Shown here in pieces: positions 11,671-48,782 of a stretch of DNA of 64,000 nucleotides. The stretch is from an uncultured Candidatus Saccharibacteria bacterium. GTDB lineage: Bacteria > Patescibacteriota > Dojkabacteria > SC72. The translations under genes and the position numbers were made by a program. Position 1 is the stretch's first letter. Every line of letters starts with the position of its first letter. The stretch covers positions 45,493 through 109,492 of the forward strand of contig CAYZNW010000003.1 in assembly GCA_964480345.1 (NCBI GenBank), in the 5' to 3' direction. Under the pieces are notes generated by a model that made no database searches, was not told the DNA's origin, and was given only the letters and a program-made list of their open reading frames with translations.

Positions 11671-13005
11671 ATGAATACATTCCCTAAATTAAATGATCAG
11701 GATGATTTCCTCATCTCCTTACAGAACGATAATTACAGTCTTCAGACTATTGTTAACTATGCGAGAGATTTATGTATATTTGCTGTGTTTTTGCATTTTA
11801 GAAATGTTGATTTTATGAAGATAACTAAAAAGGATATTAGTAGTTTCAAAGGTTACTTAATTGCTGGTCAGCATCTTACAGATTTGGATAAAATTAGAGA
11901 GAAAAGTACTAGAAACATAGACACAGTAAGGCTTAATAATATCGAGGCTCTAGGAGGCTCTAGAAGGCCTTCGAAAAAAGATGCAGGTGTAAGTAGACCT
12001 TTGAGTGATGAAGAAAATGAGTCTGGAAGCGGTAAAAGGTTTGAGAGTGATTTTTTGTCTCAGATCTACAGTAAGGTATACGGTGGTCTTGGTGTCTGGA
12101 GTAATCCTCAGAATAAAGCTGGAAGAAAAAATGAGGGTTTAGATCCAAATAGTATAAATAGAATGTTGTCTGCGTTAAGATCGTTTCTTAGGTTTAGAAT
12201 AAGTTGGGATTTACCAATACCGTTGCCACCTGATGCAGTTGATATGATGAAGACTGAAAAGAGATTGAAAAAGGTTGCTTCTAAGGATGATCTTGTGTCT
12301 TTGATTGAAGCTCCTATGGAGTTTGAGAAGGATGAGAAGATAGCTATTAGGAATAGATGTATGTTAGAGATGCTTTTTGCAACAGGTATGAGGATTTCTG
12401 AGTTGATTGGATTGGATTTAGATCAGATTAATAGCGAGGGTAAGATGTATATTTGGGGTAAGGGACAGAAGGAAAGAAGTGTCTTTATGACGCCAAGAAG
12501 TCTTGATTGGTTAAATAGCTACTTGAGGGTGCGGTTAGAATTTGCATTTACTGATAGGGGGAGTGATGAACAAGATATGTTTTTGAAAGAAAATATTAAT
12601 GAGGATCAATCTAATTTAAATTTAGAGATGTTTGATAAGGGGAATAGGAAGTATATTAGGTTAGTAGAGGAATATAGGGAAAGTGGGTATTTAGAAAAGT
12701 TTGACTCCCCTGCCCTGTTTATTCCTTTTTCTGGAAGTCGTGCCAAGAAATCTGATGCTAGGATATCAACTAATCATTTTCAGGAGAAGATAGCTGAATA
12801 CAGGAGAAAGCTTGGTATTCAGATTCCGACTTCGGCACATAGTTTGAGGCATGGTTTTGCTACTTATTTGGCTGAGGAAGGTGCTAGTCCTGTTGCATTG
12901 CAGGTGTTATTGGGTCATTCTAGTCTTAATACCACGACAAAGTACGTTCATGCTAGTGAGAAGTTTGCTGAAGAGACTGTTAGAAAGAGTCATCCATTAC
13001 AGTAG
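11671..13005 (+). CDS. tyrosine site-specific recombinase, XerC/XerD family, with two low-complexity insertions
   Basis: It has an N-terminal SAM-like core-binding region. The C-terminus 'HSLRHGFATYLAEEGASPVALQVLLGHSSLNTTTKYVH' carries the catalytic RHR-Y motifs. Confidence 0.8.
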   Translation: MNTFPKLNDQDDFLISLQNDNYSLQTIVNYARDLCIFAVFLHFRNVDFMKITKKDISSFKGYLIAGQHLTDLDKIREKSTRNIDTVRLNNIEALGGSRRPSKKDAGVSRPLSDEENESGSGKRFESDFLSQIYSKVYGGLGVWSNPQNKAGRKNEGLDPNSINRMLSALRSFLRFRISWDLPIPLPPDAVDMMKTEKRLKKVASKDDLVSLIEAPMEFEKDEKIAIRNRCMLEMLFATGMRISELIGLDLDQINSEGKMYIWGKGQKERSVFMTPRSLDWLNSYLRVRLEFAFTDRGSDEQDMFLKENINEDQSNLNLEMFDKGNRKYIRLVEEYRESGYLEKFDSPALFIPFSGSRAKKSDARISTNHFQEKIAEYRRKLGIQIPTSAHSLRHGFATYLAEEGASPVALQVLLGHSSLNTTTKYVHASEKFAEETVRKSHPLQ

Positions 13006-16520: not shown

Positions 16521-19500
16521 TTGAATAATCTGGTATATTTTAACATGGTTAATACTGCAAAGAAGTTTGTCTTAATGTTTAGAAAGAGGTACGGTGTAAT
16601 ACTACTTGTTTTGTTGCTTTTTATAATCGGCCTCTTATCTCTTAGATGGGGAAAATATTTACTATCAAATGATAATTACTCACCAGAGTTAAATCCAAAG
16701 CTATCTATAGAGAGATACCTACTCTCCCCTGCATGGAGAGGCTATCGAGTATTAGGTGTACCTTCTGATAGTGAACAAGCAGATATTTTTCGATCTATAA
16801 TATTTTATATTTTGAAGCCTATACTTGCTGACTGGTTACTAGGTCAGCTATTCTATATTTTATGTTTAGTTATCGGCTCTCTCTCCACTGCATCTTTAGT
16901 ATATTCTATTCTTCAGAAGGGTAAGTTAAGGAAATACTCACAGACAGGCTTCTTTATTTCAGGAGTTATTTATATTACAACTTTATGGACAATGTGGTTG
17001 TATTACCAGAATATGGCTCCTTATATTAGCAATTTCGGATTTTTCCCATTACTTCTCTACTCTGCATATAAATATATCCAAAACTCTACTAAAAAAAGAG
17101 GCTTTTTATTACTTCTTTCAGCTATATTATTTTCATCTGTTTCTGTAATTTCTACATTATTTATTTTAGATTTTATTGCATTTCTGGGATTTATTTTATC
17201 TGTACCTCTATTTCTAGAAGTTGATAAGAGAAATATAAACAGAAAAATTATTAAAGCATTATTGATTTTTCTAGCCTCTCAGTTATTTTGGATTCTGCCA
17301 TTTATTTACTACACTATAACTAATAGTCAAAATGTAGTTGATTCATATACAAACAAAACAATAACAGCTAGTACTATAGATCTTGAGACAGAAATGCAAA
17401 GTTGGTTAAATTCTGCAAGATTATATAACCGCAATCTTTACGAAATGAATGGTGAACGTCCGCTATTTAGTATGTCAGCTGAATTCCAAGGTTATGATTT
17501 TTATAAATTAGTTGGATTACTACCTGCATTCTTCGCTCTGTTAGCAGTAGTATTCTCAATATTTAAGAAGAAGAAAACATTATGTTATTTTGTATTAGTT
17601 GCTTTTGTTTCTTGGTTTGTGATGAAAGTAATCAACCCACCTTTTGGCGAGGTATTTATTTGGATGCAGGAATCAATTCCTCTTTTTAAACAAGTTTTAA
17701 GATGGCCATTTTCTAAAGTAGGTCAGATATATGTGTGGTCTATTACTATAGTTGGTACATTTGGAATTTTGTTTTTTGTATCCTTTTTATCCTCTTTCAT
17801 CAAGAAAAGAAAAGTAAAGAAGATGTTTAAATTCTCTGTTTTATTATTTATAGTTCTTCTTCCACTACTCTATTCTGAATACATCTTTAAAGGAGAATTA
17901 TTTTCAGATAGAGCGGCAGTCGAATTACCTAAAGAATATTATGAATTAAAAGAATATCTAGAAGAAAATAATACAACGGACAGAATATTTTATGCTCCAC
18001 CATCTAATAATAACTATTTTAGACAATATAAATGGGGTTTTTGGGGTTCTCAGTTTATCTCATATATTTTACCCAATCCTATGATGGATATGTCTTCTGC
18101 TGTAGGAAGCGGTGCTGGTGAGGAGGCTATGTTGGAAATCAGTAATATATTTAGATCATATAATCGAGAAAAGTTTTACTCTCTATTGCAAAAGTATGAT
18201 GTTAAGTATGTATTATTAGATGAAAGTTTAGATTATAATGGTTATGTATTTGAAATAGAACCAGAAGGTATTGCAGAAATATTAAGTGGTTATGAAATAA
18301 TATGGAGTTCTGATTTCCTTAAATTATATAAGGTTCCAGTTAAAGAAACTCTATTAACAGAGTCTTTTTCGGGTAATAAGTTAAATGAGAATGTTTTTGT
18401 TCGAGAAACTAAACAATCACCAGCTATTGATATCTCTTCACTTCCTCTCTCAAATAAGATTTTAGTGGATAATAATATAATTGGAGAATATAAGTATGAC
18501 GGCGATACTTACTATGTGCAATCGAATCTTAGATATAATGACTTAATTAATTATCCCACTTCCTTTATTTCCAAAAAGAATGAAATCTTAGCAACTCCCA
18601 GCTACCCTCATATTGAAGGAGATAATGTCGAACTACCATTAAAGACTTTTAACAAATCTAATTATGATTATTATATTGTCGATAATAATGTGTTCTCTTC
18701 CAACCAAATAGATAAAGGAATTACTATTCAAAAAAGCTTTGCTTCTGTTAATGAGATGTTTGGAGTTAAAGAGGATAGTTTCTCTACGATTAATTTAATT
18801 CCTTCTGTATTGAAATCACAAGGTAGTGATTGTTCAGGAAATGAGATAACAAATAATACTGCTGTTCAAAGTTTGCAAGTCAGCTCTGGGTTGAATTTAA
18901 AAGGATCTAGCCTTCTCCCCTGTGTGTATTCAAAAATACATGCTCTTAATATAGCGAATAATTATGTACTTAAAGTAGATTTAAATTGGGAAGCGAATGA
19001 GAATAATTACCCAGGTTACTGTCTTTATTCGGAAACGGAGAAAAAGTGTTTAAATAAAGAAAAATTCTTTGATGTCTCCAATTCTTATGGTAATGATGAG
19101 TTCTTAATAGATACATTAGTAAAAGGTTCCGATCGTTTAACATTAATACTTTATGTTGTAAGTACGGACAATTCTTTATCAGCAGAAGCGATATTTAAGA
19201 AAGTAGAATTAAAGTATGCTCCATTAACCGATTTATTAAATATTAAAAAGAGTACTGATACTTTCACAAAATCAGATTTCCTTATGGTTAGTGGTAATAT
19301 GTATACTGTTAAAATACCAATAATCTACGGTAGCTCATCTTACGTGTATCAAGGAGGAAACATAAATAATGTTTTATGGAATTTGGTGAAGGATTCGTCT
19401 AGTAATGGCTACATTAACATCTCAGCTGATAATGGGATGAAACAAGTTGTCGAGAAACAGAGTGTAACTCAGTCTGTAGATCTGTTTAAAACAAAAAGAA

Positions 19501-20141
19501 ATGAAAAGTATTTTGTATACTGGAATGGGAAGAATATATCTAATATCCCTGCTAATCTTTGTTTTATATATTCTCTTGATGATAAATGTTGGTATCAAAA
19601 TATGTTTGATATTGATTCTGCATCTTCTCAAATTAATTTCTTTGATAGTGCTTCTATCGATGGGGAAGCAAAATTTATTTATGGTAGTGGTAGTAATAAA
19701 CTAAGATCAGAGAATATATTAAAATCTTTAGTTATTATGAAATATCCGGATTTATGGGAATCGATAGAGTATACAGGAGAAAATGGGGCACAATTTCAGG
19801 AAGTTATGTTGAAACCTACATATCCAAATAATCTTTCATATTATAAAAGTAATCTTAAGGATCTTACTTCTAATACAATAGTAAGTATTTCACAATCCAA
19901 TTCTTCGGGTTGGTTAGCATTTGGGAAAGAAGACGGCGGTTACAAACTAATTAGTAATAAAAATAAGGTTGTAATTAATGGTTGGAAGCAAGGTTGGGAT
20001 ATATCAGATAGTAGATATTCAGATATAATTGTTTTGTATTGGCCAAATGTCCTTTCCTATATAGGATATCTGCTATTAATTGTATTAGTATTTAGGTACA
20101 CAATTAAAATCTTAAAACCAAAGAAATATGAAATCAGATAG
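16521..20141 (+). CDS. 1206-aa polytopic membrane protein, putative GT-C-fold glycosyltransferase (YfhO/PMT/ArnT-like architecture)
   Basis: The N-terminus carries ~12 TM helices. A large extracytoplasmic domain and a C-terminal TM follow. The gene is translationally coupled to the GT2 gene. Confidence 0.35.
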   Translation: MNNLVYFNMVNTAKKFVLMFRKRYGVILLVLLLFIIGLLSLRWGKYLLSNDNYSPELNPKLSIERYLLSPAWRGYRVLGVPSDSEQADIFRSIIFYILKPILADWLLGQLFYILCLVIGSLSTASLVYSILQKGKLRKYSQTGFFISGVIYITTLWTMWLYYQNMAPYISNFGFFPLLLYSAYKYIQNSTKKRGFLLLLSAILFSSVSVISTLFILDFIAFLGFILSVPLFLEVDKRNINRKIIKALLIFLASQLFWILPFIYYTITNSQNVVDSYTNKTITASTIDLETEMQSWLNSARLYNRNLYEMNGERPLFSMSAEFQGYDFYKLVGLLPAFFALLAVVFSIFKKKKTLCYFVLVAFVSWFVMKVINPPFGEVFIWMQESIPLFKQVLRWPFSKVGQIYVWSITIVGTFGILFFVSFLSSFIKKRKVKKMFKFSVLLFIVLLPLLYSEYIFKGELFSDRAAVELPKEYYELKEYLEENNTTDRIFYAPPSNNNYFRQYKWGFWGSQFISYILPNPMMDMSSAVGSGAGEEAMLEISNIFRSYNREKFYSLLQKYDVKYVLLDESLDYNGYVFEIEPEGIAEILSGYEIIWSSDFLKLYKVPVKETLLTESFSGNKLNENVFVRETKQSPAIDISSLPLSNKILVDNNIIGEYKYDGDTYYVQSNLRYNDLINYPTSFISKKNEILATPSYPHIEGDNVELPLKTFNKSNYDYYIVDNNVFSSNQIDKGITIQKSFASVNEMFGVKEDSFSTINLIPSVLKSQGSDCSGNEITNNTAVQSLQVSSGLNLKGSSLLPCVYSKIHALNIANNYVLKVDLNWEANENNYPGYCLYSETEKKCLNKEKFFDVSNSYGNDEFLIDTLVKGSDRLTLILYVVSTDNSLSAEAIFKKVELKYAPLTDLLNIKKSTDTFTKSDFLMVSGNMYTVKIPIIYGSSSYVYQGGNINNVLWNLVKDSSSNGYINISADNGMKQVVEKQSVTQSVDLFKTKRNEKYFVYWNGKNISNIPANLCFIYSLDDKCWYQNMFDIDSASSQINFFDSASIDGEAKFIYGSGSNKLRSENILKSLVIMKYPDLWESIEYTGENGAQFQEVMLKPTYPNNLSYYKSNLKDLTSNTIVSISQSNSSGWLAFGKEDGGYKLISNKNKVVINGWKQGWDISDSRYSDIIVLYWPNVLSYIGYLLLIVLVFRYTIKILKPKKYEIR

Positions 20142-22250: not shown

Positions 22251-23231
22251 ATGGAGAACTTAGATATTGAGATTAGCTCAACAACATTAGGAAATCCCAA
22301 TGAACAAGGTGGTACTACTGGTGCTGTAACAGGACTTCTTACAGAAACTCTCTCAAAAGAACAGTATACAAATATTATTGTAAATAATGCCTTGAAAGCT
22401 GAAGAGATAACAAAAGAAAATATCCCTGAAGCAACTTTTGGAGTATCCGTATTAGCCTCAGCAATCAAAACAGAGAAGATGAAGGAATTGATATCCTCTG
22501 TAGATTATCCATATTTAGTAAAGTTTAATAGTGATTTCTTAAAAGAGAAAATAGAGAAAGTAAAGGAAGAAGGATATACAGGACTAGGGCTTGGAGTAGC
22601 ACTAGCACAGGAGTATGCCTACGGATTGCTTCAATCACATACTGCAGAGCAACAGAAGGAATCAACTCAAAATGCAGTTTTAAACTCTACTAGAGATGTG
22701 GTTAAGATTCGTACTTGTATAGAAACTGTAGGATTAGAAGAAGAGATAAAGAAGATTCGAGAGGTTAATGACAAGTTGCAGAATAATGGAAAGAATATAG
22801 TTTGGGCAATTGAACCAAACAAAAAGGTTGGAGATGGAACTTTAGTGGATTTCATGAGTAGGTATGAAAATATTAAAAATGATCCACAAAATAGAAACAT
22901 GAACTTTGGTATAGATTTGGATTTAGGAGGCTTACCTCAAGAAGAAAATCTCTTTGCAATTTTAGAAATATTAGAAAGAAACGGAGAAAATAGTTTGCCA
23001 CTCTATCTGTCTCTTAGTGGTCAAGAGTATACAGAAGGCTCTGTAAGAACACATCTTCCATTAGGGGAAAATGTAGATCTTAGTAAGAAACTAGGAGAGT
23101 GGATAAATAGTAGACAGTATCAAGGAAAGAAGATTCCCGCTCTCGTAGTTGAAACATCCCCTACTCAAAATATTCTTACAGATTATGAAAAATTTCTTTC
23201 TTCTTTAAAGAAAAGTCTTACTAATCATTAA
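22251..23231 (+). CDS. hypothetical protein
   Basis: ORF only. Confidence 0.4.
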   Translation: MENLDIEISSTTLGNPNEQGGTTGAVTGLLTETLSKEQYTNIIVNNALKAEEITKENIPEATFGVSVLASAIKTEKMKELISSVDYPYLVKFNSDFLKEKIEKVKEEGYTGLGLGVALAQEYAYGLLQSHTAEQQKESTQNAVLNSTRDVVKIRTCIETVGLEEEIKKIREVNDKLQNNGKNIVWAIEPNKKVGDGTLVDFMSRYENIKNDPQNRNMNFGIDLDLGGLPQEENLFAILEILERNGENSLPLYLSLSGQEYTEGSVRTHLPLGENVDLSKKLGEWINSRQYQGKKIPALVVETSPTQNILTDYEKFLSSLKKSLTNH

Positions 23232-23979
23232 ATCTTAACAAAGTAGAACTATTACTCAATGTAGCTCTATTCTGTTTTGAAATCATGAAAATATCTTTTA
23301 TCATTCTTACTGTCTGACCTATATTTGCTGATGTACTTTTACTTCTATTCTTGTTCATAAAGAAAGGAATAATATCAACTTCATACCCTACCTTACCTAT
23401 TTCGTTCAGAATCTCAGAATCAATTGCAAATCTATTAACCTTTAATGAAGGTAATATTCTCTTAATCAATTCTTTTCTAAACAATTTAATACCACAACCT
23501 ACATCACTTACATTTTTAGGTAATGAAAGTAAGAGCTTGTTTGTAAATATCAAACCAAAGGAAAGTATAGTTCTTCCAAAAGACATTTCAACATTAGAAT
23601 TCTTGTGAAATTTAGAAGGGATCACTGCCATAACAGAATTGTTCTTTATACTTTTAAGAGCATAACCTAAAGTTCTGATCTGAATATCAGTATCAGCATC
23701 TATAAATCCTACAACATCTCCTTTTGCTCTTTTCATACCGTATCTGACAGCGTAACCTTTACCTTTATTTCTCTTATATCCAATTACTGAAACTTTCTTT
23801 AATCTATTCTCTTTAATATATTTCTCCAAAATATCCTTACTATTATCAACATACCCATCGATTACAAAGATGAGTTCAAAATCTGGGTTTTTTCTAGAAA
23901 GAAAACTGTACACTCTTTCAAGTTGTTCTAATACCTCTCTTTCTTTTTTGTATGTTGGTATAACCAAAGATAATTTCAT
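23221..23979 (-). CDS. glycosyltransferase family 2 (polyprenol-phosphate sugar synthase/DPM-like)
   Basis: 'LSLVIPTYKKE', 'IFVIDGYVDNS', 'GFIDADTD' DxD. Confidence 0.75.
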   Translation of the reverse strand: MKLSLVIPTYKKEREVLEQLERVYSFLSRKNPDFELIFVIDGYVDNSKDILEKYIKENRLKKVSVIGYKRNKGKGYAVRYGMKRAKGDVVGFIDADTDIQIRTLGYALKSIKNNSVMAVIPSKFHKNSNVEMSFGRTILSFGLIFTNKLLLSLPKNVSDVGCGIKLFRKELIKRILPSLKVNRFAIDSEILNEIGKVGYEVDIIPFFMNKNRSKSTSANIGQTVRMIKDIFMISKQNRATLSNSSTLLRFND

Positions 23980-24041
23980 AACGATTCGAATAAATTAATG
24001 ACAGATTACATTTAAATAAAGCTCCCAAGGGAGCAGTCTCT

Positions 24042-24281
24042 TTATGCAACAGACTGCTTACCCTTAAGATTCTTAGCGATTGCTAAGACTATCATTCCTA
24101 CAGTAAATGCAACAAATGCGGCTAGGTAGAAAATATTAGTATCTCCAAAACCAGTTGGTAGTGGTTTATGAGGAGTGTATGGGTTATAAGGCCCATATGG
24201 ATTTCCACTAGCTAATACAGATGAAGCGTTTAAGAAGAAGATAGAGATAACAGCTAAGATAGCTGAAAATAACTTCCTCAT
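24042..24281 (-). CDS. 79-aa sortase substrate: signal peptide, Pro/Tyr-rich 20-aa core, LPTG-like motif, TM and cationic tail
   Basis: '...HKPLPTGFGD' is followed by a hydrophobic stretch and 'KNLKGKQSVA'. The gene lies immediately downstream of the sortase gene. Confidence 0.55.
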   Translation of the reverse strand: MRKLFSAILAVISIFFLNASSVLASGNPYGPYNPYTPHKPLPTGFGDTNIFYLAAFVAFTVGMIVLAIAKNLKGKQSVA

Positions 24282-24363
24282 ATTTAAAGGGCTATTAATT
24301 TAAATGTGAGTAATTATATGACAAATATGAGAAACAGTCAATACTATAGGGTGCATCCACTCT

Positions 24364-25002
24364 CTATCGAACTCGTTCTGCGTATCGAAAGATTCTTACT
24401 GGAGAATTGAAAAACTTACATGTATAAAGTATCAAGTCTGCGCTGTAATCAGAGATATATGTTGATTCTTCGCTTTTGTATATCCTATATTTATATTCTC
24501 TCTGATTCCAATAAATGGATATCTCATCACCGTCTGCTGTATCAGGTAGATTGTAATATGAGATCTTGTTTCTCTTCTCTATACTCCAGCTTGTATATCC
24601 AAATCTATGTGCAGCTAGGATAATTGGTAGTTCAGGATTTTCTGGAGTGCCGTAATCTGCTACTATCCAGGAGCCTTGTTTCAATCCTTCATTGTAATCT
24701 TTACTTACAGATATAGGTGATTCAACCGAAATCTTTGGTACTATTACAAACTTCCCTTCAGGTAATGAACTGTTTAATTCTGGAATACGATTGAGATTAC
24801 TACTCTCCTTCTTCTCTATTTGCTCAGCAGAAATCTCTTTTACTATCTTTGCTGTATCTTTCTCCGTCTCATCAGGGTTAATTCTGTACCATATATACGG
24901 CCATACAGGTATTGCTACAAGAATAAAAGCCACTGTCAGAAGTAGAAATCCAAATACTACATATATTCTATTCATTACATTTAACAAAGCTTTTCTTTCC
25001 AT
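24364..25002 (-). CDS. sortase family transpeptidase, membrane-anchored
   Basis: His 'ILAAHRFG', Cys 'LILYTCKF' (TLxTC) and Arg 'VRIFRYAERV' align with SrtA H120/C184/R197. There is an N-terminal TM anchor. Confidence 0.8.
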   Translation of the reverse strand: MERKALLNVMNRIYVVFGFLLLTVAFILVAIPVWPYIWYRINPDETEKDTAKIVKEISAEQIEKKESSNLNRIPELNSSLPEGKFVIVPKISVESPISVSKDYNEGLKQGSWIVADYGTPENPELPIILAAHRFGYTSWSIEKRNKISYYNLPDTADGDEISIYWNQREYKYRIYKSEESTYISDYSADLILYTCKFFNSPVRIFRYAERVR

Positions 25003-25026: not shown

Positions 25027-25848
25027 TTAATTTTTACTTTTTAGAAAATCTTCTAGAATCATGCCACTGTTTATCATCTCTTGCGCATTAGCTTTACCGA
25101 TATACCTAAAATGCCAACTCTCATAGCTATATCCTGTCACTAACTCTGCCCCTTTTGGAAAACTAATCACGAAGCCGTATTTCCATGAGTTATCGTACAA
25201 CCACTTGCTTGCTTTAGTACCTGCAAATATCCCACCTAATCCATCTTTTATCTCAGCACTACTAAAATCAACAGCTGTACCCAATTGATGCTGACTATGC
25301 CCTGCTCTAGCAGAAATCATATCTGCATAATCAGTGCTGCCTCCATTGTATCCCACCCAGTACTGATATGTAGAGACTTGTTGCTGATATGATCGATAGC
25401 CTGAGACCATACTAAGATCTATCCCTGCTCCCATCGCATCATTAATTAAATTTTTCAAATCAGGAATTAGAATATTTCTTAACAAATACTTCTCTCCTCT
25501 GCGGATGCCACTTGTACTAGCTGAAACTAAATCAGATGGAGCGTACCCACTTGGTAATTGATACTGTTTGTTTACATAGACCAACAGATCATTTCCATCT
25601 CTTTTTGTCGGTTTGATATCTGTGGGGTATGTCCACCACGCAATTCCTAGCGTTTTTCTTGGGGTGATAGCCGGAGAAGTCTTTTTAACATACACATCTT
25701 CGATATCTGTGTTCACGGCTCGATGCAATCCTGTCTTGTAAGATTCTACCTCATCGATATGTTGTTGAGTGTAAGGAATCGTTTGTGGAGCTAAAGCAAA
25801 AGTTACTGTAAGCAAAGTCTCCACAACCCCCTTAATCCATGCAATCAT
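25027..25848 (-). CDS. D-alanyl-D-alanine carboxypeptidase, peptidase M15B (VanY-like)
   Basis: 'SGYRSYQQQ', 'HSQHQLGTAVDF', 'ESWHFRY' zinc-peptidase motifs. Confidence 0.8.
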   Translation of the reverse strand: MIAWIKGVVETLLTVTFALAPQTIPYTQQHIDEVESYKTGLHRAVNTDIEDVYVKKTSPAITPRKTLGIAWWTYPTDIKPTKRDGNDLLVYVNKQYQLPSGYAPSDLVSASTSGIRRGEKYLLRNILIPDLKNLINDAMGAGIDLSMVSGYRSYQQQVSTYQYWVGYNGGSTDYADMISARAGHSQHQLGTAVDFSSAEIKDGLGGIFAGTKASKWLYDNSWKYGFVISFPKGAELVTGYSYESWHFRYIGKANAQEMINSGMILEDFLKSKN

Positions 25849-32553: not shown

Positions 32554-34365
32554 ATGGCTATTGGTACATCTCTGCTTAAGTATTTGCAGTCTCAAAATTT
32601 AATTAGTGAGGATGATGCAAGGAAGGTCCTCTTGGAGAGAAGTAGATCGCAAAAAAGCGAAGAAGCTATTATTCGTGATTTAAATGTTGTTCCTGACATA
32701 GATATAGCGAAAGCTAAATCGGCAATATTTGGTATTCCTTTCATTGATATCTCTACTATGAATATTAATGAAAGTATCATAGCGGAAGTTCCAATCGACA
32801 ACTTAAATAAATACAAAGCTGTCCCATTTGAACGAGGTCAAGATTATGTAAAGATTGCTATGGAGGATCCTTTTGATATCCAAGCAACTCAGGTACTTGG
32901 TACAAAATATCCAAAAGGGACAAAGATAGAAGTATATATTACTACTGGAGATGCAGTTAGGAATATTTTAGACAGAAGGGTTGGTGATATGATGTCTTCC
33001 GAAGTAAGTGATGCGTTGGAAGACGCCGACGTTGGAGGCACAGTTACAGATATTACTGAAGATCCAAATCTGTTTGGAAGTACCAATATTTCAGCTGCAC
33101 CTGTTGCTAGAATTGTTAACTCAATTTTGCAGTATGCAGTTACCTCTAAGGCTTCTGATGTGCATGTTGAGCCTATGGAGAAGAAAGTGCGAGTCAGATT
33201 TAGAATTAACGGTGTAATGACAGAAAGATTATCTCTTCCAAAAAGTCTGAATGCAGCAGTTGTTTCTAGGATCAAAATTCTTTCAAATCTAAAAATTGAT
33301 GAAAGAAGAGTGCCACAGGATGGTCGTTTTCAGATTAAAGTTGCTAATACTAAAGTAGACTTAAGAATCTCTGTAATGCCAACTATTCATGGGGAGAAAG
33401 TAGTAATGAGGTTGCTAGAATCTGAAAACAACGATATTACTCTTGAGAGTACAGGTATTCGAGGAAATGCTTACAAAATTTTTGTAGATGCTCTTTCTGT
33501 TACAAACGGTATTGTTCTTGTTACTGGTCCTACAGGTAGTGGTAAAACAAGAACATTAGCTTGCTCATTGATTAAAGTAAATGATCCCACAGTAAATATC
33601 ATTTCATTGGAAAATCCTGTTGAGATTAGAATTCCTGGCGTAACTCAGGTACAGATAAACCCTGATGTAGGGCTTACATTTGCATATGGTCTACGATCTG
33701 TTTTACGACAAGACCCTGATATCGTAATGGTTGGAGAGATTCGAGACGAGGAAACAGCACAACTCGCTGTTCAAGCATCTCTTACTGGTCACCTAGTATT
33801 ATCTACTCTACACACGAACAGTGCAGCAGCAGCTATACCAAGACTTATGGATATGGGAATAGAACCGTATTTACTTGCTTCAACTATACGAGCTGTAGCA
33901 GGTCAAAGACTTCCTCGTACTATTTGCAAGGAGTGTATAGAAGCGTACCCTGCTACTCAAGAAGTCATAGAAAATATTAAGGAAGTGATGCAAGGAGCAG
34001 GCAACTTTGATTTAGTCACATATATTAACAGAGTGTTAGCATCTAGAAATATTGAAGGTTCTAAAGTTAGCCCTGCTATGAAAGCACCTGAAACAGGTCC
34101 TGATGGAAATGAGATAATATATCTGTATAAAGGGAAAGGTTGTGATAAGTGTGGAGGTTCGGGATATGCTGGGCGAACAGGTATATTTGAAGTTTTAGAT
34201 GTAACAGAAAATATTAGCAGAATGATTATGGAAAATGTTACCGCAGATGATATTGAGAAAGTAGCTATGAATCAAGGTATGATTACAATGATTCAAGATG
34301 GTTATCTAAAGGCATTAGAAGGTATTACTACCCTAGAAGAGGTTCTAAGGGTTTCAAAAGAATAA
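32554..34365 (+). CDS. pilB: type IV pilus assembly ATPase PilB (GspE family)
   Basis: Walker A 'VTGPTGSGKT'; tetracysteine 'CKEC...CDKCGGSG'; N-terminal T2SSE_N-like domain. Confidence 0.9.
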   Translation: MAIGTSLLKYLQSQNLISEDDARKVLLERSRSQKSEEAIIRDLNVVPDIDIAKAKSAIFGIPFIDISTMNINESIIAEVPIDNLNKYKAVPFERGQDYVKIAMEDPFDIQATQVLGTKYPKGTKIEVYITTGDAVRNILDRRVGDMMSSEVSDALEDADVGGTVTDITEDPNLFGSTNISAAPVARIVNSILQYAVTSKASDVHVEPMEKKVRVRFRINGVMTERLSLPKSLNAAVVSRIKILSNLKIDERRVPQDGRFQIKVANTKVDLRISVMPTIHGEKVVMRLLESENNDITLESTGIRGNAYKIFVDALSVTNGIVLVTGPTGSGKTRTLACSLIKVNDPTVNIISLENPVEIRIPGVTQVQINPDVGLTFAYGLRSVLRQDPDIVMVGEIRDEETAQLAVQASLTGHLVLSTLHTNSAAAAIPRLMDMGIEPYLLASTIRAVAGQRLPRTICKECIEAYPATQEVIENIKEVMQGAGNFDLVTYINRVLASRNIEGSKVSPAMKAPETGPDGNEIIYLYKGKGCDKCGGSGYAGRTGIFEVLDVTENISRMIMENVTADDIEKVAMNQGMITMIQDGYLKALEGITTLEEVLRVSKE

Positions 34366-34388
34366 ATTTTTGGTATAACTAAATAGAT

Positions 34389-36002
34389 ATGGAAGACACT
34401 GCCCAAAATACAATACAAAATAATGTGCCAGTACAGCCAGTAGCTCCTACTCCAGTTGTGAATAGTACGGTTACCTCTACTGCACCTCAGACTCCTGCTC
34501 CACAGCAAGTAGAAAGCAAAGGTGTAGAAGAAAGCCAAGATGAAAGACTAGCACAGTTAAGACAAAGTTTAAATGATTTACTAGATAATGAGAGTACAGC
34601 ACCACAGCAAAATGCTGCCCCTACTCCTCCTGTCGTTGAACAAAGTGTACCAGTACAACAATATTCGCAAACAGTAAATCCTCTTCCTGGTATTCAGACA
34701 AGTGTGAATAATGAAGAGAAAGATCTTTCAGAAGCAGTAAATTCTGTTACTGATGATATACCATCATCAACTCCACAACCTACAATTGCTCCTGATACGC
34801 CACTCAAAGAGGTAATCCCAGATGAGATTAAACCGAAAGCTATGATTAGAGATCCTAAGCCAAATAACCTTGCGACTCCTGTTGTATCTCCGGCTGACAG
34901 TGATGAGACAATATCTGGCAGCAATACTACTACAAACGCCAATTTAACAATAGAGAAACTTCTTGCTGAGGCTATAAATCGAAGTGCTTCAGACTTACAT
35001 ATATCAGTTGGATATCCACCAATCCTAAGACTAGATGGTGTTCTTGTTGATATGGAAGAGAAAGTCCTTGCTCCTGAAGATGTTGAGCAACTCATCTTCT
35101 CTGTATTAAGTGATGAGAAGAAAGAGCTACTTGAAGTTAATAGAGAGATAGATTTCGCCTATTTGTTTAATGGATCCGTCACTGCTCGATTTAGAGTAAA
35201 TGCATACTACTCTATGAAAAATCTCTCCGCAGCATTTAGACTAATTCCTTCAAGAGTACGAACAATAGAAGAGCTTATGCTTCCATCTATATACCACCAA
35301 TTAACCAAATTAAAACAGGGATTAGTTTTAGTCACAGGTCCAACAGGACACGGTAAAAGTACTACACTTGCTGCTATGCTTGAAGATATTAATAGAACAA
35401 GATTTAGCCATATTGTAACCATAGAAGATCCAGTAGAGTATGTATTTGAAGGAAAGAAAGCATTGATTGACCAAAGAGAAATGAACGATGATACTCTCTC
35501 TTGGAATATAGCACTGCGAAGCGCACTGCGACAAGATCCTGATGTTATTCTTGTAGGAGAAATGAGAGATTACGAAACAATTGCAGCAGCAATTACTCTT
35601 GCTGAAACAGGACATTTAGTATTTGCGACCTTACACACTAACAGTGCTGCTCAAACAGTAGATAGAATCATTGATGTATTCCCAGAAAACCAACAGCAAC
35701 AAATTCGAGCTCAAATAGCTAACACTTTAGAAGCAGTTGTAGCACAAAGATTAGTACCTCTTGATAAAGGAGGAAGAAGAGCAGTATCAGAAATCATGCT
35801 TAACAACTCTGCTATTGCAAACCTTATTCGTGAAGGTAAAACTCATCAAATAGATAATGTCATTAGAACAAGCTCTGATGTTGGTATGGTATATCTAGAG
35901 AAAGCTCTTGTAGGACTTGTACGAGAAGGAGTCATATCTGTACAGAAAGCACAAGAGTATGCAGTTCACCCAGAAGAAGTTTTAAGATTATTAAAAAATT
36001 AA
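34389..36002 (+). CDS. pilT: type IV pilus retraction ATPase PilT with a ~190-aa Pro/Gln/Thr-rich N-terminal extension
   Basis: 'LVTGPTGHGKSTT', 'GEMRDYETI', 'TGHLVFATLHTNSAAQTVDRI'. Confidence 0.85.
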   Translation: MEDTAQNTIQNNVPVQPVAPTPVVNSTVTSTAPQTPAPQQVESKGVEESQDERLAQLRQSLNDLLDNESTAPQQNAAPTPPVVEQSVPVQQYSQTVNPLPGIQTSVNNEEKDLSEAVNSVTDDIPSSTPQPTIAPDTPLKEVIPDEIKPKAMIRDPKPNNLATPVVSPADSDETISGSNTTTNANLTIEKLLAEAINRSASDLHISVGYPPILRLDGVLVDMEEKVLAPEDVEQLIFSVLSDEKKELLEVNREIDFAYLFNGSVTARFRVNAYYSMKNLSAAFRLIPSRVRTIEELMLPSIYHQLTKLKQGLVLVTGPTGHGKSTTLAAMLEDINRTRFSHIVTIEDPVEYVFEGKKALIDQREMNDDTLSWNIALRSALRQDPDVILVGEMRDYETIAAAITLAETGHLVFATLHTNSAAQTVDRIIDVFPENQQQQIRAQIANTLEAVVAQRLVPLDKGGRRAVSEIMLNNSAIANLIREGKTHQIDNVIRTSSDVGMVYLEKALVGLVREGVISVQKAQEYAVHPEEVLRLLKN

Positions 36003-36005
36003 TAA

Positions 36006-37217
36006 ATGAAGAAATTTAAATACTCAGCAAGAGATAACAGAGGACAAGTGATAGAAGGTGAATTAGAGGCAAAAGATATTGAATCAGTATCAGATATTTT
36101 GCATGACAAAGGATTAGTAACTGTCTCTGTCAAGGAAGGCTCAGGATTTGATTTACAGAAACTAAATGAGATAAATATTGGTGGTGTTCCGATGAAAGAT
36201 AAGGTGGTCTTCATGAGACAGATGTCAACAATGGTTGGTGCTGGTCTACCACTTACTAGAGCATTAGAGATTATGGTTCAACAAGCAAGTAATCCCAAAT
36301 TTAGAAAAGTATTACAAAGTGTTTTGCAATCTGTTGAGTCAGGTAAAACATTAGCGAACTCATTTAGAGAGCAGGAAGAGGTATTTGATAATATTACTGT
36401 TAATCTAATAGAAGCAGGAGAAGAAAGTGGTAACTTAGAAGTTATTTTAGAGAAGCTAGCTACTGAGCTTGAAGAAAGCCAATCTTTATCAAACAAAATT
36501 AGATCAGCGATGATATACCCAGCAATCATTCTTCTGGTTATCATAGGTGTAATCTTAATGATGATGTTTGTCTTAGTCCCATCTATGGCAGAGATATACA
36601 AAGATTTCGATGCAGAACTACCATGGACGACAAGATTCCTTATGAGTATGAGCTCCTTTTTCTTGAACTACTGGTGGGCTATATTAATAGTGATAATCTC
36701 ATTAGCATTAGGTATCAAATACTATCTTGGAACTGAAGCAGGAAGAGCTAACTTTGATAGATTGATATTAAAGGTTCCTGTTGTAGGTCCTATTATTTCT
36801 AAAATACAGCTTTCTCAATTTACTAGAATCTTAGCCTTACTATTAGGTAGTGGATTATCCATTATTAAGGCATTGGAATTAACAGCACAATCATTAAGTA
36901 ACTCAGAATATAGAGGTACAGTTTTAACAGCAAGAGATGAAGTCGAAAAGGGAGGAACATTGGCTCTCCCTATTGCTAGGAGTCCACACTTCCCTCTTCT
37001 AGTAAGTAGTATGATTTCAGTTGGAGAGGAAACAGGAGAGATAGATAATGTATTGAACAAAGTATCTGAATACTACAAAGAAGAGGTAGATACTGCAACA
37101 TCTAACATGTCTACGATTTTAGAGCCTCTGTTCTTAATTATCATGGGCTTAGCAATCGGATTTATTGCTCTAGCAGTGTACATGCCTATGTTCCAATTAT
37201 CCTCTGCTATTGGATAA
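36006..37217 (+). CDS. pilC: type IV pilus platform protein PilC (GspF family)
   Basis: Two GspF repeats; three TM segments. Confidence 0.9.
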   Translation: MKKFKYSARDNRGQVIEGELEAKDIESVSDILHDKGLVTVSVKEGSGFDLQKLNEINIGGVPMKDKVVFMRQMSTMVGAGLPLTRALEIMVQQASNPKFRKVLQSVLQSVESGKTLANSFREQEEVFDNITVNLIEAGEESGNLEVILEKLATELEESQSLSNKIRSAMIYPAIILLVIIGVILMMMFVLVPSMAEIYKDFDAELPWTTRFLMSMSSFFLNYWWAILIVIISLALGIKYYLGTEAGRANFDRLILKVPVVGPIISKIQLSQFTRILALLLGSGLSIIKALELTAQSLSNSEYRGTVLTARDEVEKGGTLALPIARSPHFPLLVSSMISVGEETGEIDNVLNKVSEYYKEEVDTATSNMSTILEPLFLIIMGLAIGFIALAVYMPMFQLSSAIG

Positions 37218-37288
37218 TTCATTGCTTGACATATCAATCAAAGTTCTGTAATTTATAAGTAATTAATTTGTTACTGTCTCTATTATTT

Positions 37289-37858
37289 ATGAAGAAGACT
37301 TCATACAAGGCATTCACATTGATTGAAATGCTTATCGTTATGGGTATCATTATCATTCTTATGGTAGTTGGTATAAGTGCGGCTAGGTTCGCTATTAACA
37401 GGGCAAATGATATTGCTCATCAAAATGCTGTTACTCAGATATTCCAAGCTTTAATGGCTTACTACACAGATAATAGACAGTATCCAGTTGCTCAAAATGT
37501 TCAGACATTGATAGGTACACCAGGAAATACCTCAGCTCCATTAAATAAATATATGAACGAGGGTTCATTTAAGGGTGGTACTCCAGCAAGTTATATATAT
37601 ATGGTAGATGATATACATCAGTCAGTTGCGGTTTGTGTTACATTAGGTGGTGTTAATGATGAAGCAGATAGGGGAATCTTCTGTGATGGTAATGCATTTG
37701 GAAGCCCTGAGCTAGAAACCCCAGTACAAGGTCCTTCCTTCACAAAGAAAGGAACTCTTGACTCTGAAGTGGATGAGCAAGTTTACGGGCTATTAAAAGG
37801 TTATACAGATGGTACATCTAACTGGTATGGAGATTCTACTGGTTGGACACAGAACTAA
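37289..37858 (+). CDS. type IV pilin (putative major pilin), prepilin leader MKKTSYKA|FTLIEML
   Basis: Class III signal with Glu+5 and a hydrophobic N-terminal helix; the ORF track starts at an upstream TTG (37268). Confidence 0.8.
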   Translation: MKKTSYKAFTLIEMLIVMGIIIILMVVGISAARFAINRANDIAHQNAVTQIFQALMAYYTDNRQYPVAQNVQTLIGTPGNTSAPLNKYMNEGSFKGGTPASYIYMVDDIHQSVAVCVTLGGVNDEADRGIFCDGNAFGSPELETPVQGPSFTKKGTLDSEVDEQVYGLLKGYTDGTSNWYGDSTGWTQN

Positions 37859-37883
37859 TAGCATGAGTGCTTAGTTGAAAATG

Positions 37884-37913
37884 AACCCCTCTTTTTAGAG
37901 GGGTTTTTCTTTT
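37884..37913 (+). terminator. rho-independent terminator
   Basis: CCCCTCT-TTTTAG-AGGGG followed by TTTTTCTTTT. Confidence 0.8.
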
Positions 37914-37935
37914 ATGTATATGATAATATATTCTC

Positions 37936-38697
37936 ATGTTTGTAATATATAGTTCTATATTTTTTCTAGGTGCATCTCTTGCCAGTTTTATTAATGCTAC
38001 TCTGTATAGGATTGATAACAAGAAAGAGTTTAAGAATAATTGGAGGACAATAGCCAGAAGAAACTCTTACTGTGAGAACTGTAAAAAAGAGCTTAATTGG
38101 ATAGAGCTATTCCCTATTGTTGGTTATTTAATATATGGAGGTAAATGTTCTAAATGTAGAAAATCTATAAATATCTATTATCCAATCTCTGAGTTTATAT
38201 TGGGAGTTTCTACTCTACTCTTCTATTTAAACAGTGTTCCTTTTTATCTTTATATAATTCTGATTTTTCTGTTTATACTTTCCTACTATGATTATATATA
38301 TAAAGCGGTACCGAAGAGTTTAGTTCATGTGTTTTTAGGTATATCGATTTTGTTTTTTATTGTTTTTAATTTCAGTTTAATTACTTTGGTAATAGTTCTA
38401 TCTTTAGCTATATCTCTATTGATTCTATCTGCTTTAATGAAAAAATCTTTTGGATTAGGAGATGTTTTAATATTAATAGGGCTTGGTATTGTAATGTCTT
38501 ACAAAAGCTTTTTAGTTATGTTTTGGATTGGAATATTACTAGCCCTACTCTGTTCTATAGTTTATTCTATATTGAAAAAAAGAGATTTGAGGAAGATAAA
38601 GATTCCTATGATTCCATTTTTTACGATTTCATTTCTGATTACGTGTATATATGGGTTACATATATATGATTTACTAACTAACTGGTTATCTACTTAG
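37936..38697 (+). CDS. pilD: prepilin peptidase (A24 family, PilD)
   Basis: N-terminal Zn ribbon 'CENC...CSKC'; polytopic; 'GLGDVLILIGLG' catalytic Asp region. Confidence 0.8.
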   Translation: MFVIYSSIFFLGASLASFINATLYRIDNKKEFKNNWRTIARRNSYCENCKKELNWIELFPIVGYLIYGGKCSKCRKSINIYYPISEFILGVSTLLFYLNSVPFYLYIILIFLFILSYYDYIYKAVPKSLVHVFLGISILFFIVFNFSLITLVIVLSLAISLLILSALMKKSFGLGDVLILIGLGIVMSYKSFLVMFWIGILLALLCSIVYSILKKRDLRKIKIPMIPFFTISFLITCIYGLHIYDLLTNWLST

Positions 38698-46742: not shown

Positions 46743-47510
46743 ATGAAAACTGCCAAAAAACACATATACTCTTACAGAGGAAAATATGAAGGATACACCC
46801 TAATAGAAATGCTAGTAGTAATGGCCATATTCGTCATCTTCGTAGCTATGTCTTTCTCTTCTTTCAGTGGATTACAGAATACAATTAAGATGAACGAGTA
46901 CTCATTAACGCTGGAACAAAATATTACCAATGTACAAAGAGCATCTATGTTGTTGGAGAAGAAAGCAGATGACAATTGGCTATACGGATTAGGAATAGAT
47001 CTAACTAAATTAAACCTAGAGGGTCATTACGATACATTTAAATGGTGTTCTCCTTTTACAGATTATGGAGATGTAACAACTAAATCATATATACCTTCTT
47101 TTAATCCAGCTCTAGATCTAGAATCTAGCTTAAACTTTGGCAAGAATGGATATATTCCTATCCCTACAGAAGCATCATATGCAGAAGGAACTTGCAAAAA
47201 TAGTACTTTATCCTCCATTGTTAGTTTAGTGGGATACAAAACAAGTTTAACTCCTCCAAAAGGTAAAATAACCACAAACAGCAATCCATTTAACAATAGA
47301 CCACTAAAATATCTTGTATTTGAGTCTGTTTCTGGAAGAGCATTCTTCTATGATGAAACAGGGAGAGTTGTCAATTACGATGCTAAAGGAAGACCCGTAA
47401 CAGGTCAACCTATCAACTTAGTTATTACCATAGATCCTGATACAAATATACCAATTAAGGAGATAGTTGTTGAGAATCTCTCTGGTCGTATATCAACTAT
47501 AAAGAAATAG
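46743..47510 (+). CDS. minor type IV pilin / pseudopilin
   Basis: Prepilin motif 'G|YTLIEMLVVMAIFVI'. Confidence 0.7.
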   Translation: MKTAKKHIYSYRGKYEGYTLIEMLVVMAIFVIFVAMSFSSFSGLQNTIKMNEYSLTLEQNITNVQRASMLLEKKADDNWLYGLGIDLTKLNLEGHYDTFKWCSPFTDYGDVTTKSYIPSFNPALDLESSLNFGKNGYIPIPTEASYAEGTCKNSTLSSIVSLVGYKTSLTPPKGKITTNSNPFNNRPLKYLVFESVSGRAFFYDETGRVVNYDAKGRPVTGQPINLVITIDPDTNIPIKEIVVENLSGRISTIKK

Positions 47511-47514
47511 TTTT

Positions 47515-48069
47515 ATGAAAATGAAAATAGAGACAAGTAAATATGAAGCAATGGGATTTGTTGAAGCTCTTGTAGCTATCATGGTAGTTGGTATATCAGC
47601 TGTAGTTCTAATGGAGATAGCTGCTAACACAATGCAAAATATGATACAGAATGAAAGAGTTGATCAAGTTACTCAGTACGCTGTAGAGGGGGCTGTAATG
47701 GCTCAGGTAATAGCTAGTAAAAACAAAGAAGCTGGAGGAGGGCTGTTTCCTACTGAGACAGGAGTAGAAAGATGTTATGCTATGGAGAAACTTCCTGATG
47801 GTGGATATGGGTTTGTAAAAGATGGAGAAAATGGATTTATAAGATTTTTAAATACTGACAGAAACCTATACAAAGAACAGGCTACTGTATACGATGAGAA
47901 AGGAGAAAAAACTGAATACTTTAGAATACTGTGTATTAACTTCCCTGCAGAATCAGATTACTCCTTCTTAATTGGACGAGTAGTTGTTGGACAAAGCACC
48001 TCTTCTGGAACTATAAGCAAGGGGAATCAGGTTAAAGATTACTCATATTATACCTCTATAAAATTGTAG
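47515..48069 (+). CDS. minor type IV pilin / pseudopilin
   Basis: 'G|FVEALVAIMVVGI'. Confidence 0.65.
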   Translation: MKMKIETSKYEAMGFVEALVAIMVVGISAVVLMEIAANTMQNMIQNERVDQVTQYAVEGAVMAQVIASKNKEAGGGLFPTETGVERCYAMEKLPDGGYGFVKDGENGFIRFLNTDRNLYKEQATVYDEKGEKTEYFRILCINFPAESDYSFLIGRVVVGQSTSSGTISKGNQVKDYSYYTSIKL

Positions 48070-48071
48070 AT

Positions 48072-48782
48072 ATGAAAGAAACAAATATTGAAGAACAAAA
48101 ATATGAAGCATTTAGTTTAGTAGAAATGTTATTAACTATTGTCATCATTGGGTTTGTAATGCTCATATCTGCTGTTACATTAACTACTTTAATTAAAGTC
48201 TCTACAGTCTCTAGTAATAAAACTAGAGTAAGAAATGAATCAGAGTATATATTGGAGTTAATTCGAAAAACAGTAAGAAACTCTAATCCATCAGATGTAT
48301 TTATTTTTAATTCACAAAATGCAAGAGTGTATGCGAGAAACAGTACTACTAATTCGATTACTATAGAAAGTACTGGAAGAGAAGATTTGAAAGCACTTTA
48401 CTCCTCACCTCTTGGAGAAAACGAGGTAGGGAATGAAATTCATTTTAGACCGTACGGCTACAATAGTTGGGTTTGTATAGGATTTTTCAAAGATAGGGAT
48501 TCGGAGAAAGGATATATAGTTAAAACAAATGTGGAAGATTTACTTAATAATCATGATTCATGTTTCCAAAGTGCACCTGGCAAATTCTTGATATCTTTAA
48601 ACTCAGACTATGTATCTGTGGATACTTTCTCTATAGCATATTCTAAAAGTTCAGATAACAATTATCTAATTCGTTTTGATATAGAAGCACAACCAGTTTT
48701 CTGGTATTTTGCTACTGGCGCTCCAGTTAGTAGGAAAGTTTTAAGACAGACAGTTGTGAAGACTGAAGGTTTGATATGGTAG
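48072..48782 (+). CDS. minor type IV pilin / pseudopilin
   Basis: 'A|FSLVEMLLTIVIIG'. Confidence 0.65.
   Translation: MKETNIEEQKYEAFSLVEMLLTIVIIGFVMLISAVTLTTLIKVSTVSSNKTRVRNESEYILELIRKTVRNSNPSDVFIFNSQNARVYARNSTTNSITIESTGREDLKALYSSPLGENEVGNEIHFRPYGYNSWVCIGFFKDRDSEKGYIVKTNVEDLLNNHDSCFQSAPGKFLISLNSDYVSVDTFSIAYSKSSDNNYLIRFDIEAQPVFWYFATGAPVSRKVLRQTVVKTEGLIW

Follow-up and report, generated by a model that had tools for sequence, protein, structure and literature searches.

A divergent sortase and its probable mini-protein substrate in Candidatus Dojkabacteria

We analyzed a 64-kb stretch of contig CAYZNW010000003.1 (the window, meaning this whole stretch of DNA), which has a base composition of 34% G+C and whose nearest relatives are metagenome-assembled genomes (MAGs) of Candidatus Dojkabacteria (WS6, Candidate Phyla Radiation (CPR)). 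Its minus strand carries, in the order of transcription, genes for a VanY/LdcB carboxypeptidase, a 212-aa sortase, a 79-aa small open reading frame (ORF) and a GT2 glycosyltransferase. The sortase and the small ORF, which follows it on the same strand after a gap of 82 nt, probably form a dedicated sortase/mini-substrate pair, by which a short Pro/Tyr/His peptide would be linked to the cell wall. We count the following in favor of this: the sortase fold with its aligned catalytic residues, the adjacent peptidoglycan carboxypeptidase gene, a motif that is the best-conserved part of the small protein, linkage of the two genes in 69/74 loci, a replaceable core, and the restriction of the signal to mini-proteins. 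The coordinates and peptide features quoted in the original prediction, which was made from the sequence alone, were exact for both ORFs.

Sortases have been reported for over half of CPR genomes, and in Microgenomates they are near-ubiquitous (PMC6744442). The searchable CPR literature names no substrate or recognition motif for CPR sortases, and a sortase/mini-peptide pairing is described in no curated family or searchable paper. The pair departs from known systems in a sortase outside classes A-F, a motif that is swapped and extended, and a conserved product of 10-20 residues. The locus gives a concrete, testable enzyme-substrate pair for CPR, with a motif orthogonal to LPxTG. If confirmed, it would mean that ultra-small episymbiotic bacteria decorate their cell wall with covalently bound peptides, and the tools for sortase ligation would gain a new specificity.

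The sortase and the small gene beside it

A sortase with a His/Cys/Arg triad had been predicted, and Foldseek, hhalign and residue conservation all support it. The AlphaFold 2 (AF2) model (predicted local distance difference test (pLDDT) 84.8) consists of an N-terminal membrane helix and an eight-stranded barrel. When the model was compared with the PDB by Foldseek, the top 50 matches were all sortases of classes A, C and E (E 1e-8 to 1e-7; 16-22% identity; target-normalised TM-score 0.5-0.7), with no preference among these classes. In an hhalign alignment with Staphylococcus aureus SrtA (E 8e-5), H132 fell on H120 (AAHRF/AGHTF) and C195 on C184 (LYTC/LITC), and Arg203, which lies outside this alignment, was assigned by conservation. 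H132, C195 and R203 are invariant in 28 database relatives. They are invariant or near-invariant in a comparison of 81 sortases, in which R203 is found in 80/81 and R206 is variable. In SrtA, LPXTG is bound by the beta6/beta7 region; by hhalign, this region is about 14 residues shorter in the window sortase, and D185, Y186 and D189 of its short loop are invariant.

Family models responded weakly to this protein. A Pfam scan of the window sortase gave no match at E<0.01, and most of its relatives (50-79% identical) carry a precomputed PF04203 match. TIGR01076 scored 14.8 bits, below its cut-off of 39.35, and the NCBIfam class models all stayed below theirs (SrtD 19.3 vs 140, class E 17.1 vs 160, class C 16.3 vs 160 and class D 14.1 vs 165 bits); no class B model matched at E<=0.1. 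A profile of the 28 relatives found nothing significant among all PDB chains, the best sortase having E 0.22. The relationship was recovered by fold comparison and hhalign only. Because the predicted fold and the catalytic residues match those of sortases yet the class models remain sub-threshold, we assign the larger ORF to the sortase superfamily (Pfam PF04203, MEROPS C60) and, on these comparisons, to none of classes A-F.

Some further features of the sortase were noted. The exoplasmic motif PxxPYIWYRxNP (P32..P35-Y36..Y39), which lies next to the transmembrane (TM) helix, is invariant among the 28 relatives, and an invariant L80-P81 ('sLPEG') precedes strand beta1. An internal N-L-P-[KD]-T-[GA] at aa 151-156 was rejected as a sorting signal, as it aligns with the structural NLKAAKKG of SrtA; relatives show NLPKTG here, an LPXTG mimic that is a trap for pattern scans.

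The small ORF is, judged by its sequence evolution, a real gene under purifying selection and not a chance ORF. Its product falls into 28 homologue clusters (57-100% identity), all annotated 'hypothetical protein'. Against seven orthologues of the same length, dN/dS was 0.11-0.39, with dS about 0.7-1.1 and hence near-saturated, and the part encoding the mature peptide and motif was the most constrained stretch of the gene (mean pN 0.095 vs pS 0.645). Pfam and NCBIfam gave no family for ten diverse members, even at E<=10. The NCBIfam family NF053819 (EF2685/EF0750, Firmicutes, profile of 105 aa) is a curated example of very short sortase-dependent precursors. However, one relative of the small protein reached only 12.8 bits against its cut-off of 47, in a match confined to the signal peptide, and the NF053819 proteins carry canonical LPXTG. 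Therefore, we see no homology between the two.

The small gene also has signals of its own. Between the sortase stop and the small-gene ATG lies a promoter-like site that matches the sigma-70 consensus, to which it was scored, at 11 of 12 positions and is the best match in the 3.5-kb region scanned. In 54/66 orthologous loci, a TATAAT box is found about 30-34 nt before the small-gene ATG, with at least 10/12 matches overall. Directly before the ATG is a conserved leader, the C-rich AACTAGCCCTTTAAAT, which is near-identical in about 35 Dojkabacteria loci (among L003-L051) whose sortases are 50-79% identical. The leader motif is unique in the window, where the other genes lack it, and it does not belong to a known RNA family, because Rfam found no match over the whole window. 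Shine-Dalgarno sequences are otherwise almost absent in the genome. A terminator-like hairpin stands just past the stop codon, and comparable hairpins follow the small gene in 16/66 loci in a strict search. Since the promoter-like site is near-consensus and is joined by the leader and hairpin signals, the small gene is probably strongly expressed.

Presumed sorting motif and cargo, and gene linkage

The small protein had been described as carrying a tripartite sorting signal, and this description holds: a motif, a hydrophobic segment and a basic tail are all present, in a protein that begins with a signal peptide (MRK, a hydrophobic core and VLA). Ala stands at -1 of the presumed signal peptidase I site in 66/68 orthologues and is followed by [DS]-G, and by the -3/-1 rule signal peptidase I would cleave after Ala24. 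The predicted mature peptide is 19 aa long and rich in Pro, Tyr and His, and a motif-bearing peptide that the sortase is predicted to cleave is YTPHKPLPTGFGDT. Thr-Gly lies about 6 residues ahead of the hydrophobic segment, and the presumed scissile bond is T43-G44. The hydrophobic segment and the basic tail are kept in character across all 68 orthologues.

We counted the motif columns on the alignment of these 68 orthologues. Counted from the presumed scissile bond, P6 is His (65/68), P5 is variable, P4 is Pro (61/68), P3 is Val, Ile or Leu (65/68), P2 is variable (Pro 38, Asp 17, Glu 8 and Gln 3 of 68), P1 is Thr (65/68) and P1' is Gly (58/68); Phe, Leu or Ile and then an acidic pair follow. 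As read from this alignment, the family motif is H-x-P-[VIL]-x-T-G, and the register in the window is P40-L41-P42-T43-G44, with Pro42 as x. The letters LPTG do occur in the window protein, but the suggestion that the motif is an LPTG lacking x was not upheld: the conserved register has five residues, P-[VIL]-x-T-G, and the Pro before Thr is the variable x. The motif shares x-T-G with LPxTG but has Leu and Pro in exchanged places and an additional His upstream (-5 from Thr). With an entropy of 1.2 bits, the motif is the best-conserved region of the protein, and the signal peptide, TM segment and tail (about 2.0-2.1 bits) are the least conserved, as expected for a sorting signal. The published motifs of the sortase classes are LPXTG, (N/S/P)PXTG, LPXTA and LAXTG (PMC8225981). 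None of them has the form H-x-P-[VIL]-x-T-G.

Two known systems resemble the pair in part. Class E sortases, which recognize LAxTG in Actinobacteria (Streptomyces SrtE1/E2 with the chaplins, Corynebacterium SrtE), are likewise membrane-anchored with a His-Cys-Arg triad, and their motif departs from LPxTG at the second position and keeps x-T-G (PMC8225981). Class E structures are among the Foldseek matches, and the chaplin substrates are small proteins. In contrast, the class E model stays far below its cut-off, and here Pro comes first and Leu, Ile or Val second, a near-invariant His stands upstream, the mature part is 10-20 aa and the host belongs to CPR, not Actinobacteria. S. aureus SrtB, with IsdC (NPQTN), is also a specialised sortase encoded beside its one substrate, which has a non-LPxTG pentapeptide (PMC8225981). 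However, IsdC is a folded NEAT-domain haem receptor and not a mini-peptide, class B models gave no match, and the shorter beta6/beta7 region described above is a further difference.

Across the family, the mature peptide is 10 to about 32 aa long and about 100 aa in one variant. The shortest (L056) is DGYGHIPVDT, with 10 aa; in Microgenomates a Cys pair and a poly-Thr run (TTTTTT) are found in a peptide of about 32 aa; and in L067 a Pro/Thr/Ser-rich stretch of about 100 aa precedes the C-terminal signal. What lies between signal peptide and motif is therefore replaceable, while the C-terminal signal stays constant, and so the two behave like cargo and signal in sortase substrates. The remark that the mature product is unusually small was correct, given 19 aa here and 10 aa in L056. 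With a product of only 10-20 residues, the function must lie in the peptide or in something that it carries.

This variation also bears on the pilin-like polymerisation unit that the original prediction had suggested. A pilin-like subunit polymerised through Lys isopeptide bonds by a class C sortase finds support only in the facts that there is a sortase and that the window peptide has one Lys (K39). The K39 column is K in 21/68 and otherwise E, T, D, I or V, and some mature peptides, such as DGYGHIPVDT, have no Lys at all. A peptide of 10-32 aa contains no Ig-like, CnaA or CnaB domain, the class C model scored 16.3 bits against a cut-off of 160, and what the genome does encode is an ordinary type IV pilus cluster. 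Because there is no conserved nucleophile Lys, a Lys-linked pilin is effectively refuted, and we regard it as extremely improbable. The Pam pili of CPR (bioRxiv 10.64898/2026.03.03.709456) are unrelated, consisting of donor-strand exchange pilins with Ig folds.

Next, the signal is confined to mini-proteins. An hmmsearch of 1.84e9 representative proteins found 57 relatives, all of 43-97 aa except one spurious eukaryotic lectin, which is why we consider the signal restricted in this way. In a pattern scan, the small ORF was the sole ORF in the window with a C-terminal motif, TM and basic-tail ending. Of 624 ORFs that encode 150 aa or more, in about 835 kb (the window and about 770 kb of loci), none had an ending with x-T-G, TM and basic tail; among these ORFs, only a GT-C glycosyltransferase family ends in a TM and a basic tail, and it has no x-T-G motif. 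Canonical LPxTG substrates were likewise not found within the 64 kb and about 770 kb of related loci. In L056, L057, L060, L068 and L072, the substrate has Ser or Asp in place of Gly after Thr and a 10-aa mature peptide, and the sortases of the same loci have a QNYL insertion after NPE and KDID for SDYS in the beta6/beta7 loop. The joint change of P1' and sortase loop may reflect enzyme-substrate co-evolution, with which it is compatible, although it is confounded by phylogeny.

Linkage of the two genes was examined in a sample of one genome per GTDB species, in which 154 loci carry this sortase family; 80 of the 154 were examined. A locus was counted as paired if a downstream ORF on the same strand had a signal peptide, the motif, a TM and a basic tail. 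The pairing was found in 69/80 species-level loci, or 69/74 when contigs ending too soon were excluded. Six of the 11 unpaired loci are such contigs, and the rest include a sortase subclade (L055, L058, L059, L063) that has GFPQLFHFFNLSSPE in place of PxxPYIWYRxNP. As the small ORF is kept in orthologous loci, the objection that the original prediction had raised against itself, a small ORF that is not conserved, falls away. The MAG CSSed10_113R1 has two paralogous sortases, one paired with a small ORF (L070) and one unpaired (L058).

The usual gene order in Dojkabacteria is GyrA-VanY-sortase-small ORF-GT2. Synteny inside Dojkabacteria is weak evidence alone, because gene order there is generally conserved. 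The pairing is also kept in Microgenomates-type loci (L065 of Chisholmbacteria, L071, L073-L078 and L080), where the GyrA/VanY synteny is gone and the other neighbors differ. We therefore discounted VanY/GyrA synteny as functional evidence: outside Dojkabacteria, only the sortase/small-ORF pairing and, in part, the glycosyltransferases survive. The VanY gene adjoins the sortase on either side in most Dojkabacteria loci, separates the sortase from the small ORF in about 25, and is absent from the Microgenomates loci; VanY/LdcB is a linked neighbor that may have a role in the mechanism. Other genes intervene in two Microgenomates loci, and the pair is still kept in both. In L073 (6686..7797), three short ORFs, by eye a toxin-antitoxin-like pair and one more, lie between the sortase and the small ORF, and in L076 (6706..7860) this place is taken by a single 384-aa ORF with a P-loop-like motif.

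Proposed mechanism and competing readings

In the mechanism that we propose, the small gene, with its own near-consensus promoter and terminator, would give a Sec-exported precursor, from which signal peptidase I would take off about 24 residues. The C-terminal hydrophobic segment and Lys-rich tail would keep the remainder in the membrane and present H-K-P-L-P-T-G to the sortase. The membrane-anchored sortase (Cys195/His132/Arg203) would then cut after Thr43 to form a thioacyl intermediate, and the 19-residue peptide would be passed to an amine, most likely that of the lipid II stem peptide, to yield a peptidoglycan-bound peptide. The steps after export are proposed because of the architecture of the small protein and the established sortase mechanism; the T-G cleavage, the nucleophile, the signal-peptide site and the high expression of the small gene are likewise inferred.

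Several points weigh against a wall-anchored mini-substrate. Cleavage and wall attachment of the small protein are deduced from sequence. The motif is non-canonical (P-L-P-T-G, not L-P-x-T-G), and TIGR01167 (LPXTG_anchor) did not match the window protein at E<=10 and gave one relative 12.0 bits vs a cut-off of 15.9. The TM and tail are fairly well conserved among close relatives, which a discarded segment would not need. The advantage of anchoring a peptide of 10-20 residues is not obvious, and the basis for the word 'dedicated' is a profile search together with sampled DNA of about 835 kb. Furthermore, a small membrane protein encoded downstream of a sortase can be an accessory factor, as is SafA (PMC9282373).

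SafA of Actinobacteria has 52 aa and a single TM, is oriented N-in/C-out without a signal peptide, and carries PGP and exoplasmic FPW motifs; it is no sortase substrate but binds SrtA and keeps signal peptidase away from it (PMC9282373). We compared the small protein with this published description. By analogy, the small protein might be an uncleaved membrane partner that controls the stability, localisation or activity of the sortase, either as a two-TM hairpin, if the N-terminal segment is kept, or as a single-pass type I protein. This is the most serious rival, and we think it unlikely. The position of the small gene directly downstream of the sortase agrees with it and is the only defining feature of SafA that the small gene shares; the altered TM-proximal motif of the sortase subclade without the small gene (L055/58/59/63), where PxxPYIWYRxNP is otherwise invariant, and the fairly conserved TM and tail speak for it as well. 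On the other hand, the small protein has two hydrophobic segments, with a cleavable-type signal peptide (Ala at -1) and a C-terminal TM followed by a basic tail, its motif lies before the TM and not after it, FPW is lacking, and the Thr-Gly motif stands at the spacing of a sorting signal. Moreover, the exoplasmic segment ranges from 10 to about 100 aa with only the motif-proximal part kept, which fits cargo and signal better.

Alternatively, the peptide could be processed by the sortase but not anchored to the wall: water would release a free signal or effector peptide of 10-20 aa, or the peptide's own N-terminal amine would give a head-to-tail cyclic or an oligomeric product. A product too small to display anything would suit this outcome, as would the gene's own promoter-like site (11/12), which is conserved across loci. 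The residues after the presumed signal-peptidase site are unusually conserved ([DS] 52/68, Gly 53/68), which one would expect of a new N-terminus with a function. In vitro, sortases are known to cyclise peptides that begin with Gly, which counts for this alternative, but we know of no natural peptide that is cyclised or released by a sortase, and the N-terminal residue would be Ser or Asp, not Gly, if the cut is after Ala24. The neighbors (VanY/LdcB and glycosyltransferases) also point to the cell wall and not to export, immunity or sensing. We rate release or cyclisation as quite unlikely and favor attachment of the peptide to the cell wall by its own sortase.

Neighboring glycosyltransferases and other genes of the window

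The positions of the sortase, the small gene and the other features are given in Table 1.

Table 1. Features of the window, with positions counted from its first nucleotide
Feature	Position	Strand	Basis or remark
Sortase, 212 aa, type II membrane protein	24364..25002	-	Fold and conserved His/Cys/Arg
Sortase N-terminal TM helix, ~aa 14-40	24883..24963	-	
Sortase His132 (AAHRFGY)	24607..24609	-	Codon confirmed in DNA
Sortase Cys195 (LILYTCK)	24418..24420	-	Codon confirmed in DNA
Sortase Arg203 (SPVRIF)	24394..24396	-	Codon confirmed in DNA
Internal N-L-P-[KD]-T-[GA], sortase aa 151-156	24535..24552	-	Rejected as sorting signal
79-aa precursor (MRKLFSAILAVISIFFLNASSVLASGNPYGPYNPYTPHKPLPTGFGDTNIFYLAAFVAFTVGMIVLAIAKNLKGKQSVA)	24042..24281 (stop codon 24042..24044)	-	Conservation, synteny, purifying selection
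Signal peptide, aa 1-24	24210..24281	-	n/h/c regions
Predicted mature peptide, aa 25-43: SGNPYGPYNPYTPHKPLPT	24153..24209	-	
Extended sorting motif H38-K-P-L-P-T43-G44	24150..24170	-	68-orthologue alignment; codons confirmed in DNA
Rest of sorting signal: spacer FGDTN (acidic after Gly), hydrophobic segment, tail	24045..24149	-	
Hydrophobic segment, aa 50-69	24075..24134	-	Kyte-Doolittle 15-residue window maximum 2.6
Basic tail KNLKGKQSVA	24045..24074	-	
Promoter-like site TTGACT-17 nt-TATAAT (11/12)	24313..24341	-	Between sortase stop and small-gene ATG
Conserved 5' leader (AATTAATAGCCCTTTAAAT)	24282..24301	-	Directly before small-gene ATG
Terminator-like hairpin GCTCCC-TTG-GGAGC then TTTATTT	24011..24034	-	Just past small-gene stop
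VanY/LdcB-type peptidoglycan carboxypeptidase	25027..25848	-	24 nt upstream of sortase; Pfam VanY 8e-34, NCBIfam LdcB 3e-31
GT2, polyprenyl-phosphate sugar transferase-like	23221..23979	-	Directly downstream of small gene; Pfam Glycos_transf_2 2e-24
AftD-like GT-C membrane glycosyltransferase (predicted), 1198 aa from ATG at 16545	16545..20141	+	C-terminal beta-sandwich domains
LytR_C-only protein, 401 aa	2620..3825	+	
Type IV pilus cluster	32554..38697 and 46743..48782		
LamG/ConA-like repeat protein, 2662 aa	38690..46678	-	Within pilus cluster
TrwB/VirD4-like coupling-protein ATPase	3867..6344	+	
Tyrosine integrase	11671..13005	+	

The GT2 protein shows weak NCBIfam similarity to ArnC/AglJ/PgfS-type enzymes, and its position is kept in most Dojkabacteria loci. 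A second glycosyltransferase candidate is encoded elsewhere in the window. This 1198-aa protein has no Pfam match, and all its homologues are 'hypothetical'. Its AF2 model (pLDDT 84.9) matched mycobacterial AftD best in the PDB, over the full length (E 1.5e-15), and then OST/STT3 and AftA. Because of these Foldseek matches, AftD being an arabinofuranosyltransferase, the protein is predicted to be a GT-C glycosyltransferase with carbohydrate-binding-like domains. The ending NGWKQGWD...YWPN...TM...KRK at its C-terminus is conserved. In related loci, a homologue of it directly follows the small ORF (L041, L047, L048, L049, L062, L078), follows a GT2 gene (L075, L076, L080) or lies further downstream on the same strand (L065). 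GT2 and/or GT-C genes come after the pair, in the same orientation, both in Dojkabacteria and in several of the Microgenomates loci that have lost all other synteny. In L073, L074 and L077, membrane proteins that look PMT/ArnT-like, by eye from a DEGIY motif, stand beside the pair. Together with these GT2/GT-C neighbors, the pair could expose how CPR organisms build their envelope.

Extracytoplasmic glycosylation from polyprenyl-phosphate sugars usually relies on a GT2 together with a GT-C. Given the recurrent GT2/GT-C neighborhood and the Tyr/Thr-rich peptide, the mini-peptide could be a linker or primer installed by the sortase: its core would be glycosylated outside the membrane by the AftD-like GT-C and then joined to peptidoglycan. 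GT2 may make the polyprenyl-phosphate sugar donor, and the Tyr/Thr-rich core (NPYGPYNPY here, TTTTTT in Microgenomates) may be what is glycosylated. We hold this role as a linker to be doubtful, because the evidence for it is that of the neighborhood and CPR genomes are rich in such enzymes. If true, a CPR wall glycopolymer would be attached via a ribosomally made peptide and not by an LCP-type phosphodiester linkage. In Actinomyces oris, the abundant sortase substrate GspA is first glycosylated and then anchored to the wall (PMC9282373, PMC6381275), and glycosyltransferase genes recur beside the pair here. However, GspA is much larger and is glycosylated by an LCP enzyme, whereas glycosylation of the CPR peptide is hypothetical. 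A 401-aa protein of the window has a C-terminal LytR_C domain only, with no detectable LCP catalytic domain, and bears on how wall glycopolymers are attached in this organism.

Elsewhere in the window, the type IV pilus cluster encodes two T2SSE ATPases, a PilC-like T2SSF protein, a prepilin peptidase and several N-methyl pilins. Within it lies a gene whose product, of 2662 aa, comprises a glycine-rich domain and seven LamG/ConA-like repeats and may be a pilus-associated adhesin. The window also contains genes for a TrwB/VirD4-like coupling-protein ATPase and a tyrosine integrase, which may be remnants or part of a mobile element or of a CPR type IV secretion system.

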